Shown here: positions 1 through 5,553 of the stretch, piece by piece
Layout: each line of letters starts with the position of its first letter
Position numbering within the stretch: position 1 is the first letter of the stretch
Source: a virus
Virus record (IMG/VR): IMGVR_UViG_3300020182_000005
Span: 1 to 5,553 of that record
Reading direction: 5' to 3' (one strand)
Length of the DNA: 5,553 bases
Notes under the pieces: generated by a model
What the model was told of the DNA's origin: nothing
Databases searched by the model: none
What the model saw: only the letters and a program-made list of their open reading frames with translations
Translations under genes and position numbers: made by a program

Positions 1-24
1 CCTCGGCGTAGGTTCGCCGTCGTT
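1..24. repeat. Terminal direct repeat, copy 1 (circular-assembly overlap)
   Basis: cctcggcgtaggttcgccgtcgtt at 1-24 is identical to 5530-5553. The Rep reading frame runs straight through the junction, as expected for a circle opened inside a gene. Confidence 0.95.
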
Positions 25-1021
25 GTATTTGTTGTCCTTGTTTTATTGTTTTTATTACTTCTGGTCTTTTTTCGTGCCATTCGTCATTCTCCGTTAGTAT
101 TTGCAATCCTGTTTTATTTTTGTCTTCCCAATATACTATTGGTATTCCATCATATGTTGCTTCCACCATATGTATATCTTTAAATATTCCGTCTCCTTGT
201 CCTTCGATCCAAGGTTCTACATATTTTACTGGTTTATAATGTAGGCGTTCGTACATTTCCTCGTCGGTGTACTCTATTTCCGTTATATCGTCGTAGTAAT
301 CTGTTACTAATTCGGATAACGGTTCGTGTGAATATTTGTCTTCCCACTCGTTGACAAAAGTTTTCATGAAATTTTCTCTTGTTTTGCCTTGCATCATAAA
401 CCCTTTCTCTCTGTTTTTATAATCTCTCACATCCCCAAACTTATAAAAATATGTTTGCGGTGCGAGTGCTTGTTCAGCATATTGCTTCGCTAATTGTTGA
501 AAAAACTCGTGTCCTAATGGTGGTTTTTTGCTCATAGCCAAATGGCTATCGCTTTGCCTTGATGTTTGATCTTTCAGAACATATTTAAGGCAATATTCAA
601 AACCTTTCCAATCTGGCTCTTGAAAATATGCAAACCCATGTTTCCAATATTTCCAATCTACCCTTTTGTTTGACGTCACTTCTGGCCAATTATCCTGAAA
701 GAATAATATTATATGCCAATGTGATCGTCCTTTTGCGCTACCGTATTCTCCGGTAACGATGTAACGAACTTTATAATTTTTACGCAGTCTTTTGAGAAAA
801 TCTTGAACGTCTTTATAAACTAATGTTACTGCATGAACTTTTTCGTGCTCTTTTAATTTATCATCTCCATACGTTAATGTTACTGCGTAAGTTTTCTTTG
901 AAAACTTACTTTCGGCAATGCATCTTCCAACGTAATCGTTAACTCTACGTTTGCGGCATTGCCAGCATTCGCGACACCCAACTTCCGTACCATCATCTAA
1001 TTTTGTTGGTGCTATGCACAT
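1..1021 (-). CDS. Rolling-circle replication initiator (HUH endonuclease, phiX174 A / gokushovirus VP4 type), first 340 codons. The CDS continues across the circular junction to a stop at 5503-5501 (349 aa in total).
   Basis: Missing from the ORF track because it runs off the window edge. On the minus strand the ATG is at 1021-1019, with an in-frame stop upstream at 1051-1049. I read every in-frame triplet from 1021 to 2 and found no stop. Translation: MCIAPTKLDDGTEVGCRECWQCRKRRVNDYVGRC...KKTYAVTLTYGD...EYGSAKGRSHWHIILFFQ...WKGFEYCLKYVLKDQ... It carries an N-terminal Cys cluster (C-x13-C-x2-C-x2-C), RCR motif 1 (TLTY), an HUH motif (HWH followed by hydrophobic residues) and the two-tyrosine motif Y-C-L-K-Y. 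The SD is weak (AGGA, 12 nt upstream). Confidence 0.93.
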   Translation of the reverse strand, partial: MCIAPTKLDDGTEVGCRECWQCRKRRVNDYVGRCIAESKFSKKTYAVTLTYGDDKLKEHEKVHAVTLVYKDVQDFLKRLRKNYKVRYIVTGEYGSAKGRSHWHIILFFQDNWPEVTSNKRVDWKYWKHGFAYFQEPDWKGFEYCLKYVLKDQTSRQSDSHLAMSKKPPLGHEFFQQLAKQYAEQALAPQTYFYKFGDVRDYKNREKGFMMQGKTRENFMKTFVNEWEDKYSHEPLSELVTDYYDDITEIEYTDEEMYERLHYKPVKYVEPWIEGQGDGIFKDIHMVEATYDGIPIVYWEDKNKTGLQILTENDEWHEKRPEVIKTIKQGQQIQRRRTYAE

Positions 1022-1089
1022 ATTTACTGCTGTTCCTGTAGTTTGGTGTCACTAAATGCATATCTTAACAAGGGTAGGGATATCTGGTC

Positions 1090-1132
1090 GGCAAACGGAA
1101 CTCCAATACTTGGAGTTTCCGTTCCGTTTGCC
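1090..1132. other. Long imperfect stem-loop (~17 bp, 3-nt loop, 5-6 nt bulge) in the peptidase-Rep intergenic region
   Basis: GGCAAACGGAA(C) at 1090-1101 pairs with (G)TTCCGTTTGCC at 1121-1132. The inner stem is CTCCAA (1101-1106) with TTGGAG (1110-1115), loop TAC. The right arm contains a tandem TTCCG TTCCG (1117-1126) that allows two slipped alternative pairings. No U-tract follows on the coding strand. Confidence 0.7.
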
Positions 1133-1136
1133 TCGT

Positions 1137-1154
1137 GTAAGTTATTCAACTTAC
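1137..1154. other. Short AT-rich stem-loop just after the peptidase stop codon
   Basis: GTAAGTT (1137-1143) pairs with AACTTAC (1148-1154), 4-nt loop ATTC. On the plus strand TGTTTTTTATTTG follows. Confidence 0.5.
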
Positions 1155-1160
1155 TGTTTT

Positions 1161-1697
1161 TTATTTGATTTGGTCTTGCCAATTGTCTATTTCCCAATGT
1201 GCGGGATCGTAGAAATTCCAATCTCCGCCCCAATCTAATTTAATATTTCTTTTACGCGCTATTTCTTTGCCGACTGCTCCTATACAGTCCCATTCTTTTT
1301 TGCTTAATTGCCACGCGCGTGTGGCGTGAATTATATCCACGGCCATTCCATATTGATGCGCGCCAAATCCAGCAGAAGCTTTGCTTCTGCCTTTGTCATA
1401 TAACTCTTGTTGCCGTTCTGCAGATCGTACAAATTCAAACGCTCGAATTGGTATATTCCGTCGCTTCATTGCTTTGGAAAAGGCTTTCCAAAACTCGATT
1501 ATATCAGGGTGTACCCCTTGATAATCGTTTTCCGTCTGCTGAATTTTAACCCAGAGTGATTTTGATGCATTAGGTTCTGCTAATGATCTTGCCGCTTCTA
1601 CGTGTGTTCTATGCACAAATTCGTCCCTGTGCCAGAATTGGATACGGTCAATAAACCGTATCCATCGTAGAAACTTACTCGGGGGTTTCTCCTGCAT
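1161..1697 (-). CDS. Zinc metallopeptidase of the M15 family (VanY-like / phage L-alanyl-D-glutamate endopeptidase type); putative peptidoglycan hydrolase (endolysin or entry enzyme)
   Basis: 178-aa ORF. Signature blocks read directly from the translation are FVRSAERQQELY (R-S-x3-Q-x2-L-Y), SAGFGAHQYGMAVDI (H-x6-D zinc ligands) and KLDWGGDWNFYDPAHWE (WGGDW ... D-x-x-H-W-E, third ligand/catalytic pair). I know this arrangement from the T5 endolysin, the Ply500 catalytic domain and VanY relatives. There is no N-terminal signal peptide or TM segment. The ATG at 1697 has AGAGG 12 nt upstream and overlaps the preceding gene by 23 nt. Confidence 0.88.
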   Translation of the reverse strand: MQEKPPSKFLRWIRFIDRIQFWHRDEFVHRTHVEAARSLAEPNASKSLWVKIQQTENDYQGVHPDIIEFWKAFSKAMKRRNIPIRAFEFVRSAERQQELYDKGRSKASAGFGAHQYGMAVDIIHATRAWQLSKKEWDCIGAVGKEIARKRNIKLDWGGDWNFYDPAHWEIDNWQDQIK

Positions 1698-2202
1698 GTT
1701 CTGCTTCTGCCTCTAGTGGCGCTTCAACTACTGTTTCCGCTTCTGCTTTAATTTTTGCAACTTCAGCTCTTAATGCGGCTCTTTCGGCCTGTAGCTGTGC
1801 GTTGCGTTGCGTTTCATTATGTTTCATAAATGCTACCATTCGATCAAACTCAGTTGAGTTATTTATGCGTGGCTCTATCGATGTAAAACTTGGTTTATCA
1901 GTATTTTCTACTGCTTGATCCAAGTCTGGTATATTTACAAATATATCAGCTGATTTTTCAGCTTTGATTTGCACGTATGTTGTTGCAGGTGCTGTGTATT
2001 GAATCTGAGTTTTGCCTGGTAAAGTTGTTCCAACTAAAACTGAATCAGTCATTTTATTGTCGTTTGCTACCCAAACTTCAATATTGCTGTTTGCTGTTAC
2101 TTCAAATTTTACGTGTCTTGGTTTACTTGAGACAAATTTTAACACTTTGCCTGGTAAAGTTTTTGACCAGGTATTTATATTGCCGTGTTTTATTCTATTC
2201 AT
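1675..2202 (-). CDS. Hypothetical 175-aa protein in the position usually held by the internal scaffolding protein (VP3-like candidate; function unproven)
   Basis: ATG at 2202 preceded by AAAAAGGAAAATAGAAA (an SD-like AGGA 9 nt upstream). It lies immediately after the capsid gene and its hairpin. The N-terminal half looks beta-rich, with two TLPGK-containing segments. The C-terminal ~50 aa are Ala/Glu-rich, helical and acidic (AQLQAERAALRAEVAKIKAEAETVVEAPLEAEAEHAGETPE). PSFTSIEPR...EFDRMVAFMK only weakly recalls the gokushovirus VP3 motif. Confidence 0.7.
   Translation of the reverse strand: MNRIKHGNINTWSKTLPGKVLKFVSSKPRHVKFEVTANSNIEVWVANDNKMTDSVLVGTTLPGKTQIQYTAPATTYVQIKAEKSADIFVNIPDLDQAVENTDKPSFTSIEPRINNSTEFDRMVAFMKHNETQRNAQLQAERAALRAEVAKIKAEAETVVEAPLEAEAEHAGETPE
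2011..2026. repeat. 16-nt perfect direct repeat, copy A (TTTGCCTGGTAAAGTT), inside the 175-aa ORF
   Basis: Identical to 2146-2161. The copies are 135 nt (45 codons) apart and in the same reading frame. Each encodes T-L-P-G-K (residues 60-64 and 15-19). Confidence 0.9.
2146..2161. repeat. 16-nt perfect direct repeat, copy B (TTTGCCTGGTAAAGTT), inside the 175-aa ORF
   Basis: Identical to 2011-2026. Confidence 0.9.
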
Positions 2203-2219
2203 TTTCTATTTTCCTTTTT

Positions 2220-2257
2220 AAAATGAGCAGGGGAGGGGAGGGCTCCCCTGCTTTTTA
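2220..2257. terminator. GC-rich stem-loop between the capsid gene and the next gene; a bidirectional intrinsic-terminator-like element (probably leaky on the coding strand)
   Basis: The stem AGCAGGGGAG (2226-2235) pairs with CTCCCCTGCT (2243-2252), with a 7-nt loop GGGAGGG. On the coding (minus) strand the hairpin is followed by CAUUUUAAAAA. On the plus strand it is followed by TTTTTAT. It starts 5 nt after the VP1 stop. Confidence 0.6.
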
Positions 2258-3928
2258 TCACTTCGCGATACGTGAGGAATCAACTTGCGAAGTAATTGTG
2301 TCGTAATCGCTTGTTGCGTCAGTTTCTTGTAGTCCAGCACCGAATACGGTGTTTCCTACAATTTGCATGTCCGAAAGACATGTAATTTCAAAACTGTCGC
2401 TTATTTGGTCAGCAAATACTTTCTTGTGCAAATTTGAACAAAGATAGAAATCTTCGTTCAAACTCGGTGAGGTTTGCTCGGCAGTCCAAATTTTAGCCCT
2501 GTCCTCGTCAAATGCGTCATTTGCAGGGCGGTAATATTTACCACCTACGTTTACCGCATCTCTTTGCCACTCATGGTTAAGTGGTGCATAACCAAATGTA
2601 CCATCTGGTGTTGCATGGATTACGTCAGCGTGATCATTTTTTACAACTGCCACTTTTTCTGGGTCTAATACATCAGACAAATAGTTAGGTAACGTATCTG
2701 GATCTGTTGTGTATAAGAAATAATCTTTCTTACGTTCCCAGAGTTGCTCTGGCACAATTTCCATGGTCAGCATAATAATTCCACCTGTGTTTAAAGCGGG
2801 AGTTCTAAATGACATATCTACTGTAGCCATACCGTTTGTTGCTGACTTATCCAAATTTGCGCCATCTGTCGCATAACGTTGGTTAAATCCTATCATTGCA
2901 CGTTGACGACCCAATAGTATTGGTTGTTTTAATGATTCTTCAGGCACCCTGATTCCGCTCATAAGTAGGTCGATAATGTGCTCTGATTCCAAACCATCAT
3001 AACGTGCTCTTAATTTAGCAAAAGCCGCTGTTTTACGTGCTTGTTCAATGTCAGCTAATGACATTGTTGCGTTTCCGCCTGTTGTTAACTCTGCATATAT
3101 TTCATCAAATAGATACATATCGCCTTCGTCTATAAGCTCAGCACCAGACATTGCAGGTGAATAACCTAATGTATCTGTTGTTGTATTGTTTGCTGAAGCA
3201 GTTCCCGTAATACTATCACGAGAATATTTTGGTGCTTTTATTGGTGCTTGAAATGTTAATCCCGCAAGTGTGACTTGTCCGTCAATTAAATTCTGGTCAT
3301 AATCTGGTACAATATTTTGCATTCCGTTATTAATCCAAAACGCATCAGCTAATGTGTGATCAAATGCGTTTCTTAATGGTAACGATTTTGATCGTGCTTT
3401 GCGTCTATGGTTTACAATTGCATTATAAGATTCAACAATTGTTGTAGTTACATTACTTGTTGTTTGTGAATGTATACCCATTGTTTGATAAAATTGGGCA
3501 ATTCCACTTGCCGCTTCTGCATCTAAATCTTGGCCATATGTAGACAATGTATTTACTGTATCTGTAGGTACAGCATAAAATTTATTACTTTCAAAAAATG
3601 GTATTACACTACCTGCGGCGCCATTTTCTTTTTTATATGATCGGTTTAATTCGTCCATTGATCCGTTAAAACGGTCAAATGCAAGCATTGGTACGAAATG
3701 CGCGTAAAGAGTTACGCCTACACCATTCATTAACATTTCTGATGTTTCCATCATTTCAACGTTAACTCTAACTTTACCGCTTCGAACGCCGTCTTCGCGG
3801 TGTAACCATTCATACTTCAGTGGCAGGATTTTTCCTGCATCACCCGATGTTAACACTCGGCCTTTTGCACTACGTACAGATTTCTGTACTGCAATAGGTG
3901 AGTTTGGTATCATTTCAGTCATTCTCAT
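2258..3928 (-). CDS. Major capsid protein (Microviridae F / VP1 family)
   Basis: 556-aa ORF. It has a strong SD (AAGGAG, 9 nt upstream of the ATG at 3928). The N-terminal blocks SGDAGKILPLKYEWLHREDG and VTLYAHFVPMLAF match the conserved DAGxLIPI...(L)PGD... and FFVPxRL blocks of gokushovirus-type VP1, as I remember them. Size and genome context also fit. Confidence 0.92.
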   Translation of the reverse strand: MRMTEMIPNSPIAVQKSVRSAKGRVLTSGDAGKILPLKYEWLHREDGVRSGKVRVNVEMMETSEMLMNGVGVTLYAHFVPMLAFDRFNGSMDELNRSYKKENGAAGSVIPFFESNKFYAVPTDTVNTLSTYGQDLDAEAASGIAQFYQTMGIHSQTTSNVTTTIVESYNAIVNHRRKARSKSLPLRNAFDHTLADAFWINNGMQNIVPDYDQNLIDGQVTLAGLTFQAPIKAPKYSRDSITGTASANNTTTDTLGYSPAMSGAELIDEGDMYLFDEIYAELTTGGNATMSLADIEQARKTAAFAKLRARYDGLESEHIIDLLMSGIRVPEESLKQPILLGRQRAMIGFNQRYATDGANLDKSATNGMATVDMSFRTPALNTGGIIMLTMEIVPEQLWERKKDYFLYTTDPDTLPNYLSDVLDPEKVAVVKNDHADVIHATPDGTFGYAPLNHEWQRDAVNVGGKYYRPANDAFDEDRAKIWTAEQTSPSLNEDFYLCSNLHKKVFADQISDSFEITCLSDMQIVGNTVFGAGLQETDATSDYDTITSQVDSSRIAK

Positions 3929-3992
3929 TTGCGTTTTCTCCTTGCAATGATTTTGGTTATAATTTTTCTTATTTTCTTACACTTGGCGCACA

Positions 3993-4871
3993 TTAAAATT
4001 GTGCTTTCATGTAATTGACAAATTTCTTATCTTCTGGCGATAAATTACGTATAGTTCCTAAGGTTTTTTGAGATATTGCACCTGATTTATAATTCATCTG
4101 GCTTTGCAATTTTTTTAATTGCTCTATTGTATTTCCTTTGGTTTTCTTTTCAGCTTTGTAACCATACCAACCAAAAGTTTTTCCCAACTTTTCTCGTAAT
4201 GCTTTTCCTGTAATATCACCGACATGATATGAACCTGCCATTGTTTTAAGCATTCCACCTAATAATAAATTACCCCATTCCATTTCTTCTGTTGGTAATC
4301 TCCATTTTCGACCCCATGGATCAACCCACACATGATCAAGCGATTTTTGATTTGCAGAAAAAACGCTATTTCCATCAGTAACAAATTCATATGTAACTGG
4401 GTCTTGAACTACGTCATAGATTGCAGTGCTATGTTCTGAATTTAATTTTCCGTTTGATAATTTTACAGGTGCTGTTATATCTTTTCCTGTAATTGTAGGT
4501 TCTTCTATTACAGGTGCATTTTTGTTTTTGTGTTTATCATAAGCATCAAATGCATTGAAAAATGCATCTGAACTTAATCGCCCCATAGGAACCTGGTCTC
4601 TATAAAATCCTTGTCCACCTGTTGCTCTTAATACTGTTAACGGATTAAATCCGTTTGCAATTGCGTTGCGTCTTAATTTACCTAAATCTGTTCCAGTTTG
4701 TCGTGCTTGTAATTTTCTGTCGTCTAATGAACTACCTATTTGATAACCTGCGGCTGCACCTTGTGCACCTCCCATCATTGCGCCGCCTGCGGCTAATGTA
4801 TATTTAGCCATTCGTCTTGATTCATCTTCAAATGAACGCAATGCTTGTCTAAATTTTGTTCCAAAACCCAT
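3993..4871 (-). CDS. Minor capsid / DNA pilot protein (VP2- or H-like)
   Basis: 292-aa ORF with an SD (GGGAG, 9 nt upstream of the ATG at 4871). A Gly/Ala-rich hydrophobic segment (LAAGGAMMGGAQGAAAGYQIG) is followed by NGFNPLTVL. This resembles the G/A-rich region plus GLNP-type motif of microvirus VP2 proteins. It lies adjacent to the capsid gene. Confidence 0.78.
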   Translation of the reverse strand: MGFGTKFRQALRSFEDESRRMAKYTLAAGGAMMGGAQGAAAGYQIGSSLDDRKLQARQTGTDLGKLRRNAIANGFNPLTVLRATGGQGFYRDQVPMGRLSSDAFFNAFDAYDKHKNKNAPVIEEPTITGKDITAPVKLSNGKLNSEHSTAIYDVVQDPVTYEFVTDGNSVFSANQKSLDHVWVDPWGRKWRLPTEEMEWGNLLLGGMLKTMAGSYHVGDITGKALREKLGKTFGWYGYKAEKKTKGNTIEQLKKLQSQMNYKSGAISQKTLGTIRNLSPEDKKFVNYMKAQF

Positions 4872-4872
4872 A

Positions 4873-4968
4873 TTATATTACTCCCGCGTTTATCAACGTG
4901 TCCGAGAATAGGGCTAAACCCATTACTATTCCCGCTACTGTTGCAATAATGATGTCTTTTAATTTCAT
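4873..4968 (-). CDS. Small single-pass membrane peptide, 31 aa (MKLKDIIIATVAGIVMGLALFSDTLINAGVI); function unknown
   Basis: Below the ORF-track cutoff. It has an excellent SD (GGAGGTGGATTAA directly before the ATG at 4968). Its ATG overlaps the stop of the upstream small ORF (ATGA at 4968-4965). Its TAA (4875-4873) ends 1 nt before the VP2 ATG. The hydrophobic core IIIATVAGIVMGLALF is flanked by charged residues. Confidence 0.6.
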   Translation of the reverse strand: MKLKDIIIATVAGIVMGLALFSDTLINAGVI

Positions 4969-5144
4969 TTAATCCACCTCCGTGTTATGAGGTCAATCGA
5001 TACTCCCGCTAAAGCGGTAAATCCCAAAACGATACTTTCAGTTGTACCAACTGCAATTCCTGCGCCCGCAAGCGATGCGCCGAGCATTGTACCACATCTA
5101 GTGATAATAGGTTTTAAGATTTGTTTAATTAATAAGATTTGCAA
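4965..5144 (-). CDS. Small hydrophobic Gly/Ala-rich protein: 59 aa from TTG 5144, or 40 aa from ATG 5087 (MLGASLAGAGIAVGTTESIVLGFTALAGVSIDLITRRWIK); function unknown
   Basis: Open minus-strand frame from the stop at 5174-5172 down to TGA at 4967-4965. TTG at 5144 is preceded by GAAGGA plus eight A residues (good SD spacing). The internal ATG at 5087 has no clear SD. There are two short hydrophobic G/A-rich segments and a basic C-terminus (RRWIK). It is the first gene downstream of the non-coding region. The start codon is uncertain. Confidence 0.5.
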   Translation of the reverse strand: MQILLIKQILKPIITRCGTMLGASLAGAGIAVGTTESIVLGFTALAGVSIDLITRRWIK

Positions 5145-5182
5145 TTTTTTTTCCTTCTTATTTAGAAGGGTCTAACTGCTCA

Positions 5183-5210
5183 ATGGCCGATAATATATAT
5201 TATGATACCA
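5183..5210. promoter_or_regulatory. dif-like 28-nt site (candidate XerC/XerD recombination target) built around a perfect 14-nt palindrome
   Basis: ATGGCCGATAA-TATATA-TTATGATACCA. The palindrome ATAATATATATTAT is at 5190-5203. By my own position-by-position count it matches E. coli dif (GGTGCGCATAA TGTATA TTATGTTAAAT) at 18 of 28 positions. It matches B. subtilis dif (ACTTCCTAGAA TATATA TTATGTAAACT) at 19 of 28, including the whole central hexamer and the inner ATAA / TTATG arm ends. Both dif sequences are quoted from memory. The sequence is low-complexity and AT-rich, so chance resemblance is possible. Confidence 0.3.
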
Positions 5211-5242
5211 TTATGAGACTCATTGTGTTGACCCATACGTTT

Positions 5243-5272
5243 TTTATAGCTTTGTACATTTGTAAATGTAAA
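5243..5272 (-). promoter_or_regulatory. Candidate sigma70-type promoter for the structural operon
   Basis: On the minus strand: TTTACA (5272-5267), an 18-nt spacer, then TATAAA (5248-5243). An A/T-rich UP-like tract lies upstream (CTTTTTTAAAAAAAAGGGC). It sits ~100 nt upstream of the first gene. The spacer contains the near-palindrome TACATTT-GT-AAATGTA (5255-5270). Confidence 0.4.
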
Positions 5273-5470
5273 GCCCTTTTTTTAAAAAAGTTTCATTTTT
5301 TTACTTTTAACACCAAGGAACATATGTTTTTTTAGACCCTGACCCCCCAGTAGGGGTGTTATTCTTTGGTCTATCTTTGCACCTTATCCGCAAGTCCTTG
5401 ACCCTAAAGTTTTTGGGGGATTTTTTCCGCTTCGCTAGAGCCTGTTCAGGCGGTGCTGTAGCCGTTCGCT

Positions 5471-5486
5471 CCCGTTGTTCAACGGG
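5471..5486. other. Small GC-rich hairpin 15 nt downstream of the Rep stop
   Basis: CCCGTT (5471-5476) pairs with AACGGG (5481-5486), loop GTTC. No U-tract follows on the coding strand. Confidence 0.45.
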
Positions 5487-5500
5487 TGGACTGTATATTT

Positions 5501-5553
5501 CTATTCCCCGTCCAATTCCGCGTACTGTACCTCGGCGTAGGTTCGCCGTCGTT
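5501..5553 (-). CDS. C-terminal end of the same Rep CDS (5530-5553 duplicates 1-24; the unique part is 5501-5529)
   Basis: Position 1 equals 5530. Continuing the frame gives ...QRRRTYAE-VQYAELDGE, then TAG at 5503-5501. Confidence 0.85.
   Translation of the reverse strand, partial: RRRTYAEVQYAELDGE
5530..5553. repeat. Terminal direct repeat, copy 2 (circular-assembly overlap)
   Basis: Identical to 1-24. Confidence 0.95.

Follow-up and report, generated by a model that had tools for sequence, protein, structure and literature searches.

The first microviral cell-wall peptidases to be reported were M15_3 peptidases in 11 gut gokushoviruses and alpaviruses, which Roux et al. 2012 proposed to be horizontally acquired endolysins (PMC3394797). 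In Families 7 and 14 of the microviruses, the genes run in the order VP1-peptidase/amidase-VP4-VP2, with lysis-associated accessory genes at a conserved position between VP1 and VP4 (Kirchberger et al. 2022, PMC9239249). Family 7 is the Occultatumvirinae, which counted 433 genomes after the 2024 Roseobacter phage paper; most of them carry the peptidase, which that paper assigns to lysis, and subgroups 6 and 7 and phage CRPss-154 do not (PMC11499846). In Rhizobium microviruses, mcp, rep and lys form the basic gene set (PMC9512667), and a lysis role for microviral peptidases has been proposed in all four of these studies. Here we describe the M15 zinc peptidase gene of a 5,553-nt stretch of viral DNA, positions 1 to 5,553 of IMG/VR record IMGVR_UViG_3300020182_000005, which we call the window. 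The window is a further member of this described subfamily, and its peptidase is real but ordinary, most probably serving as the endolysin, the role that the literature also favours.

The M15 gene starts with ATG, encodes a 21.2 kDa protein with an isoelectric point (pI) of 9.5 and occupies 9.7% of the genome, in line with the tenth that the initial annotation had estimated. That annotation had picked out an open reading frame (ORF) of 178 amino acids (aa) with the full M15 signature and neither a signal peptide nor a transmembrane segment. Its coordinates hold, and every motif it listed is present: R91-S-A-E-R-Q96-Q-E-L99-Y100, H114-x6-D121, W156-G-G-D-W160 and D164-P-A-H167-W-E. No signal peptide or transmembrane segment was found in the protein, the highest 19-residue Kyte-Doolittle mean being 0.54. 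The profile search suggested at the time as a check gave 32.0 bits for Pfam Peptidase_M15_4 (PF13539; cut-off 25, E 2e-7) and 25.1 bits for VanY (PF02557), which barely reaches the cut-off of 25. The protein also matches PHROG 465 'endolysin' (E 1.6e-21) and, among PDB sequences, LysECD7 (8q2g, E 8.6e-11), RB49 (E 3.3e-10), ChiX (5opz, E 4.2e-9), LysB4 and Ply500 (2vo9, E 8e-5). An NCBIfam scan of the M15 protein, ORF175, VP2 and two small ORFs, ORFA and ORFB, gave zero matches. The gene and its predicted active site lie at the following window positions:

1161..1697, minus strand: M15C-type zinc peptidase gene, putative endolysin, 178 aa (ORF, Pfam, PHROG, PDB, AlphaFold2, Foldseek)
1164..1517, minus strand: catalytic M15 core, codons 61-178 (predicted local distance difference test score, pLDDT, mostly >90; aligned to CwlK-, ChiX- and LysECD7-type enzymes)
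1425..1427, minus strand: R91 codon, conserved Arg of the R-S-x3-Q motif (invariant in 36 sequences)
1356..1358, minus strand: H114 codon, predicted first zinc ligand of H-x6-D (invariant; aligns with His in 8q2g and 5opz)
1335..1337, minus strand: D121 codon, predicted second zinc ligand (invariant; aligned)
1197..1208, minus strand: D164-P-A-H167, predicted catalytic Asp and third zinc ligand (invariant; aligns with D-x-x-H of 8q2g)

None of the residues R91, H114, D121, D164 and H167 varies among 36 aligned homologues, and H114-x6-D121 and D164-x-x-H167 align with the same motifs in 8q2g and 5opz. H114 would be a zinc ligand by analogy with what is established for M15/LAS enzymes, and the predicted ligand geometry is taken from the alignment, not from distances measured in the model. 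An AlphaFold2 model built on the homologue alignment has a mean pLDDT of 87.2, with values mostly above 90 across residues 60-178, and its predicted fold is the LAS fold. Foldseek assigns a probability of 1.0 to matches with 8q2g, 5opz, 2vo9, 6akv, and LdcB and VanY structures. Target-normalised template-modelling (TM) scores are 0.76 for LysECD7 (8q2g, E 1.4e-8), 0.73 for ChiX, 0.66 for Ply500 and 0.65 for LysB4; RB49 is also among the top matches. A structural comparison with Ply500 and the T5 endolysin had been suggested as well, and both enzymes appear, Ply500 (2vo9) as a match with a TM score of 0.66 and T5 EndoT5 among the like enzymes. The LdcB/VanY carboxypeptidases come next, then distant hedgehog N-terminal domains, as expected for the Peptidase_MD / LAS clan.

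The M15C endopeptidases LysECD7 (8q2g), RB49 and T5 EndoT5 (23ri, 2mxz), Serratia ChiX (5opz) and Bacillus CwlK share the catalytic fold and motifs of the window protein at about 25-28% identity, with a Foldseek probability of 1.0 and target-normalised TM scores of 0.57-0.76. They differ in being about 125-137 aa long, in having no N-terminal extension, and in coming from tailed double-stranded DNA phages or bacteria, where they stand beside holins or holin-like partners. The nearest characterised relatives of the window protein are L-alanyl-D-glutamate endopeptidases, and by homology at 25-28% identity the L-Ala-D-Glu bond would be its likeliest target. Sequence, catalytic residues, fold and purifying selection agree in supporting the view, already taken in the initial annotation, that this is an intact M15 (LAS-type) peptidoglycan peptidase of a microvirus.

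The genome that carries it is complete and circular at 5,529 nt, because bases 1-24 of the window recur at 5530-5553. All of its genes lie on the minus strand, its guanine-plus-cytosine (GC) content is 38.5%, and in the direction of transcription the genes follow one another on the circle as ORFA59, ORFB31, VP2, VP1, ORF175, M15 and Rep (VP4). This is the published Family 7 order VP1-peptidase-VP4-VP2 (PMC9239249) laid out on the 5,529-nt circle. The three genes on which the placement turns are:

2258..3928, minus strand: VP1 major capsid protein (MCP), 556 aa (tblastn to the CRPss-155 MCP; IMG/VR relatives)
3993..4871, minus strand: VP2-like DNA pilot protein, 292 aa (position and similarity to the VP2 of relatives)
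1..1021, continuing at 5501-5529 across the circle junction, minus strand: replication initiator VP4 (Rep), 349 aa (circular ORF, Pfam, PHROG)

VP1 shares 75% identity with the MCP of Roseobacter phage CRPss-155 over 100% of the query (tblastn, GenBank phages) and 40-47% with capsid proteins of tortoise, bat, rat and Rhizobium microviruses, the Rhizobium value being 40%. Rep is 62% identical to that of CRPss-155 and matches Pfam REP_ORF2-G2P (E 1.4e-17) and PHROG 942 (E 7.6e-41). Membership in the Occultatumvirinae is defined by a VP1 of at least 30% identity over at least 80% of its length together with a VP4 homologue (PMC11499846), and on these sequence comparisons, which give both, the window genome is assigned to the Occultatumvirinae / Family 7. 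No Pfam model matched VP1, nor did any PHROG at E up to 0.01; profile libraries miss the VP1 of Occultatumvirinae. In IMG/VR, 157 contigs encode a VP1 relative, and the best 80 of these 157 share 67-89% VP1 identity with the window. With its GC content and the CRPss phages as its nearest cultured relatives, the window fits the low-GC marine subgroup 11 of PMC11499846. A whole-genome megablast against GenBank phages returned only short capsid-gene matches at 75-81%, so the genome corresponds to no deposited phage record; the identical 178-aa M15 protein is present on two ENA metagenome contigs of 5.4-5.6 kb.

The closest described counterparts of the peptidase are those of CRPss-151/152/153/155 (PP558214-PP558218; PMC11499846), annotated 'M15 family metallopeptidase' and found at about 60% identity by tblastn against GenBank phages. 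They are orthologues, at 58-60% identity over about 91-97% of the protein, and resemble the window gene in length class (180 aa), in position (ORF175 homologue, M15, Rep) and in having an N-terminal amphipathic helix. The overall genome architecture is also the same, with VP1 at the 75% identity given above; unlike the window, the CRPss-155 type lacks ORFB31, and otherwise only sequence divergence separates them. At 33-50% identity, the 'endolysin protein' of Rhizobium microviruses (RHph_Y2 and others; PMC9512667) and the tortoise and Flyfo orthologues belong to the same orthologous group. Their peptidase likewise sits downstream of VP1 and upstream of Rep, and a structured N-terminal region is common to all. 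Most Rhizobium- and tortoise-type proteins differ from the window's in having no cationic amphipathic helix at the extreme N-terminus, and the RHph_Y2 protein, unlike the window M15, falls below Pfam detection. The Rhizobium phages also have 59-60% GC (PMC9512667) and genomes of 6 kb, and the gut-associated genomes (tortoise, bat) measure 5.7-6.5 kb. The gut gokushovirus and alpavirus M15_3 enzymes (PMC3394797) are likewise peptidases of the LAS clan that microviruses acquired and that were put forward as endolysins, but they belong to PF08291 rather than PF13539/VanY and are sporadic and independently acquired, whereas the window's gene has a fixed position in its subfamily.

Gene presence was scored in 36 near-complete relative loci, each of at least 5 kb. 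M15 is present in 35 of them, always between the ORF175 homologue and Rep, and the sole locus without it is a contig that ends directly after ORF175. Among these relatives, M15 identity declines broadly in parallel with VP1 identity, which fits vertical inheritance. Further carriers of the gene are CRPss-251, 18 microviruses from tortoises, 11 from bats and 27 of Rhizobium, the last with the 'endolysin protein' annotation. Relatives of VP1 lie inside larger contigs (L086-L091) of Aquamicrobium, Agrobacterium, Devosia, Paracoccus and Cypionkella, where VP1 is followed by M15; these VP1-M15 loci within alphaproteobacterial assemblies are probably prophages, in agreement with the Occultatumvirinae prophages published in Rhizobiales and Rhodobacterales.

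Where the initial annotation spoke of sporadic reports of M15-like ORFs in microviruses and regarded their role as uncharacterised, the gene has a fixed position in Family 7, occurs in most of about 430 genomes and in 35 of the 36 relatives, already bears the annotations 'M15 family metallopeptidase' and 'endolysin', and has had a lysis role proposed for it within the subfamily. Because the gene is known, annotated and near-universal in a described subfamily, a claim of novelty is unsupported. A conserved endolysin in an abundant marine subfamily offers one clear route to how microviruses outside the phiX174 group lyse their hosts; its value for that question is already in the literature, to which the window adds another member. 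Since the CRPss relatives infect cultured Roseobacter RCA strains, ideas about lysis are directly testable.

Three things at this locus are modestly new, and the first two are evidence that the N-terminal extension of the peptidase is functional and evidence that it starts with a conserved amphipathic helix in the marine subgroup. The roughly 60 residues ahead of the core had been described as featureless, a description that gives way to modelled helices, a motif common to microviral homologues and a conserved cationic amphipathic helix:

1518..1607, minus strand: structured N-terminal part with the motif H-V-E-A-A-R-S-L, codons 31-60 (AlphaFold2, alignment, Foldseek lengths)
1632..1676, minus strand: cationic amphipathic helix KFLRWIRFIDRIQFW, codons 8-22 (hydrophobic moment, conservation, low-confidence helix prediction)

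Microviral M15 homologues are about 150-240 aa long; the next-best matches are CwlK-type proteins of bacteria and tailed phages, which have about 126-136 aa and begin to match near residue 53 of the window protein. As the microviral homologues are the longer ones, an N-terminal extension is typical of microviral proteins. Residues 31-60 are modelled as short helices with mean pLDDT values of 91 (31-40), 77 (41-50) and 83 (51-60), and the motif H-x-E-A-A-x-x-L in this segment is common to the microviral homologues. Foldseek alignments span 162-164 columns with Ply500 and LysB4 and 158-185 with microvirus-type proteins in BFVD, against about 125-129 with short stand-alone enzymes, and the longer alignments therefore probably include part of residues 31-60.

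Further upstream, 18-residue windows around the helix (start residues 2-3) reach a hydrophobic moment of 0.64, which is the maximum of the protein and falls in the top 0.55% of 18-mers across this phage's proteins. Most homologues in the marine subgroup have an equivalent helix, with a moment of 0.62-0.69, even where the sequence has changed (RPLLRFLRLVRVLDRINR, for example), and the helix is absent from most tortoise- and Rhizobium-type homologues. A perfect inverted repeat at 1639-1664 falls within the codons for this helix. Among 19 ungapped orthologues, the ratio of nonsynonymous to synonymous change is 0.34 for codons 9-30, 0.31 for codons 31-60 and 0.35 for the core; it follows that the extension is translated and as constrained as the catalytic domain. 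We rejected an alternative internal start that would remove the extension, as codons 9-30 have a core-like ratio and the next ATG, at codon 77, is already inside the domain.

The M15 protein is probably the endolysin used for host lysis. A complete microvirus genome encodes a muralytic domain here, as expected of an endolysin gene. We infer its activity, bond specificity, timing, export route and role in lysis along the following lines. The protein would be a soluble, cytoplasmically made zinc metallopeptidase of M15C type, serving as the phage endolysin and expressed from the structural-gene strand directly after, and overlapping, ORF175. It would gain the periplasm after a breach of the inner membrane, cut the stem peptides of peptidoglycan and cause the sacculus to fail and the cell to burst. 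In the marine subgroup, the N-terminal amphipathic helix may tether the enzyme to a membrane or aid in disrupting one. The third-position GC of M15 (0.374) is nearer that of Rep (0.314) than those of VP1, VP2 and ORF175 (0.19-0.27), and this, together with a hairpin after the VP1 stop, weakly hints at a low-abundance non-structural protein.

For an endolysin made in the cytoplasm to act, the inner membrane must be breached; the best candidates and most probable agents would be ORFA59 and ORFB31, acting in a holin-like manner. The identification of these two conserved small membrane-protein genes (4873-5144) as possible holin partners is the third modestly new point:

4965..5144, minus strand: ORFA59, 59 aa, holin candidate (35/36 relatives, selection, sub-threshold orthologue matches)
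4873..4968, minus strand: ORFB31, 31 aa, single-pass membrane peptide, possible lysis accessory (orthologues, hydropathy, selection)

ORFA59 has two hydrophobic Gly/Ala-rich segments and a basic C-terminus. It is present in 35 of the 36 relatives, keeps its TTG start in 34 of 35 orthologues and has a nonsynonymous-to-synonymous ratio of 0.29. The family spans the subfamily, unannotated in each database searched, and includes CRPss155_02 of CRPss-155 and EVB83_006 of Rhizobium phage RHph_Y2; its gene invariably sits immediately ahead of VP2. Of ten family members, five match Pfam Phage_holin_10 (PF23987), and that family alone, below its threshold (best E 0.0035; cut-off 27 bits). Given that the matches are only sub-threshold, we call ORFA holin-like, by size and topology, and not a holin. 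The ORFB31 start codon overlaps the ORFA stop (ATGA), and its own stop lies 1 nt before the VP2 ATG. The peptide has a 17-residue Kyte-Doolittle mean of 2.46 and is found only in the closest relatives (20/36); its 33 distinct orthologues all have an ATG and an open frame, with a ratio of 0.45. Both small proteins are under purifying selection and are candidates for a holin on weak evidence. A single case in favour of ORFA as a partner of the peptidase is CRPss-154 (L084, PP558217), which has neither an M15 gene nor a detectable ORFA homologue. In the M15 position (5145-5720), this phage has a 191-aa ORF with no Pfam match, and an HNH endonuclease lies between its Rep and VP2; it may have a different, unrecognised lysis gene.

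Several observations weigh against the endolysin reading or its parts. The searchable literature shows no biochemical experiment on any microviral M15 protein. The M15 protein has no export signal, and no spanin or other outer-membrane disruption function is evident among the window ORFs. ORFA59 of the window matches no Pfam, PHROG or NCBIfam family, so that we rejected its identification as a holin by family match, and when 5.8 billion proteins were searched with an ORFA profile, the only matches were unannotated proteins from contigs of microvirus size. Neither ORFA nor ORFB is adjacent to M15, and the joint absence of M15 and ORFA rests on the single genome of CRPss-154, too few for a conclusion, the profile-based locus search having given mostly close relatives. 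As for the amphipathic helix, 316 of 5000 shuffles of residues 1-30 (6%) reach a moment of 0.64, and the helix at residues 8-22 is predicted at low confidence (pLDDT about 58-69).

The sole microviral wall hydrolase with activity shown, in the literature we found, is Gp7 of Ebor (Tainavirinae), a related alphaproteobacterial microvirus in which it fills the same functional slot between VP1 and VP4 (PMC11980548). Ebor Gp7 is active as a peptidoglycan hydrolase in zymograms and is present in virions in only trace amounts (PMC11980548). It has no Pfam M15 match and a BLASTP E of 0.23 against the window M15. We therefore rejected it as experimental validation of the window protein: the two are non-homologous, and the activity of Gp7 does not validate the M15 type.

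A bolder arrangement, which we consider rather unlikely, is that the endolysin of the low-GC marine subgroup has acquired a membrane-active helix and forms, with ORFA59 and ORFB31, a complete three-part lysis system of less than 0.85 kb, or that the helix targets the enzyme to the virion so that it serves both entry and lysis. In the first case, a 5.5-kb single-stranded DNA phage would match in minimal form the holin-endolysin-spanin pathway known from tailed phages, with its membrane lesion, wall cleavage and outer-membrane disruption.

It is quite improbable that the peptidase is an entry or dual entry/lysis enzyme, packaged, perhaps by way of its N-terminal extension, and opening peptidoglycan locally during genome delivery. 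Virion-associated lytic enzymes do act at entry in phi6 (P5) and PRD1. Other microviruses bring in their DNA with no muralytic enzyme, as is established for phiX174. In the microviral M15 proteins, an extension that stand-alone CwlK-type enzymes lack is under purifying selection, and the gene sits in the structural block, after VP2-VP1-ORF175; its third-position GC, however, is unlike that of the structural genes. The nearest relatives that have been characterised are endolysins or resemble them, and CRPss-154 infects the same host strain without an M15 gene. Ebor provides an argument on each side: traces of its unrelated hydrolase Gp7 were detected in virions, but only VP1, VP2 and the basic Gp10 are there in significant amounts (PMC11980548).

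Similarly improbable is a self-sufficient lysin, whose amphipathic helix would itself cross or destabilise membranes and make a holin needless, or would replace a spanin in the marine subgroup. The helix is rich in Arg, Trp and Phe, is kept in most of the marine subgroup despite divergence (moment 0.62-0.69) under the same constraint as the core, and no spanin-like gene is evident in the window. Yet most terrestrial and gut members of the orthologous group lack the helix and keep the peptidase, and ORFA is conserved alongside it. The moment is also borderline for a surface-seeking helix, its value being matched in the 316 of 5000 shuffles noted above, and model confidence in the helix region is low.

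That the protein is non-lytic or degenerate, with a part in wall remodelling or host manipulation or as an inactive remnant while another, unrecognised gene lyses the cell, is highly improbable: CRPss-154 and subgroups 6 and 7 presumably lyse without the peptidase (PMC11499846) and small membrane proteins able to act alone are present, but all catalytic residues are invariant in a gene under purifying selection, on which grounds we rejected the inactive remnant, and the gene is retained near-universally in relatives despite extreme pressure on genome size.

Around the peptidase gene, the window contains further conserved genes and elements:

1675..2202, minus strand: ORF175, conserved, 175 aa, possibly translationally coupled to M15 (36/36 relatives, directly upstream of M15)
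2226..2252, no strand assigned: perfect 10-bp hairpin in the gap between the VP1 stop and the ORF175 start, a possible attenuator ahead of ORF175 and M15 (function inferred)
1090..1132, no strand assigned: compound hairpin with 12-nt perfect outer arms in the gap between the M15 stop and the Rep start (inverted-repeat structure)
1-80 and 5307-5529 across the junction, minus strand: basic ORF, 100 aa, pI 11.5 (overlaps the last 108 nt of Rep in another frame)

The last 23 nt of ORF175 overlap the start of M15. ORF175 has no family match and no match among solved structures at E up to 10; its homologues include CRPss155_05 and RHph_Y2 EVB83_002. Read by eye, its N-terminal half has a beta-rich look and its C-terminal part is helical with an Ala/Glu-rich acidic tail. 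Ebor Gp5 looks alike in layout and was not found in virions, which by analogy makes an internal scaffolding role for ORF175 plausible.

The two hairpins belong to a set of four inverted repeats, each perfect over 10-12 nt and with a short loop (1090-1132, 2226-2252, 1639-1664 and 887-909); by a rough estimate, fewer than one such 10-bp repeat would be expected by chance in 5.5 kb. These repeats could be transcription attenuators, or structural or origin elements of the single-stranded DNA.

The 100-aa basic ORF is kept in 34 of the 36 relatives and is unannotated in CRPss-155. Its C-terminal motif, C-K-x-R-P ... G-G-x-S ... [FY]-V-P-W-C, recurs in Ebor Gp10, a basic protein whose presence in virions was verified by mass spectrometry and whose gene likewise lies over the 3' end of rep (PMC11980548). 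The ORF probably encodes a DNA-charge-neutralising internal protein of the subfamily.

Among relatives with VP1 identities of 81-89% and M15 identities of 79-99% (L003-L051), VP2 is only 31-89% identical, often over partial length, and it seems to evolve or recombine at a much higher rate than the remainder of the genome. Third-position GC differs strongly from gene to gene (VP2 0.19, ORF175 0.24, VP1 0.27, Rep 0.31, M15 0.37, basic ORF 0.40), which may reflect expression level or overlapping-frame constraints. Four IMG/VR contigs of 8.7-12.2 kb (L003, L005, L012, L024) hold about 1.5-2 genome lengths. They carry ORFA and other genes twice, at times as slightly different versions, and have the appearance of concatemers or chimeras assembled from close strains, not of larger genomes.

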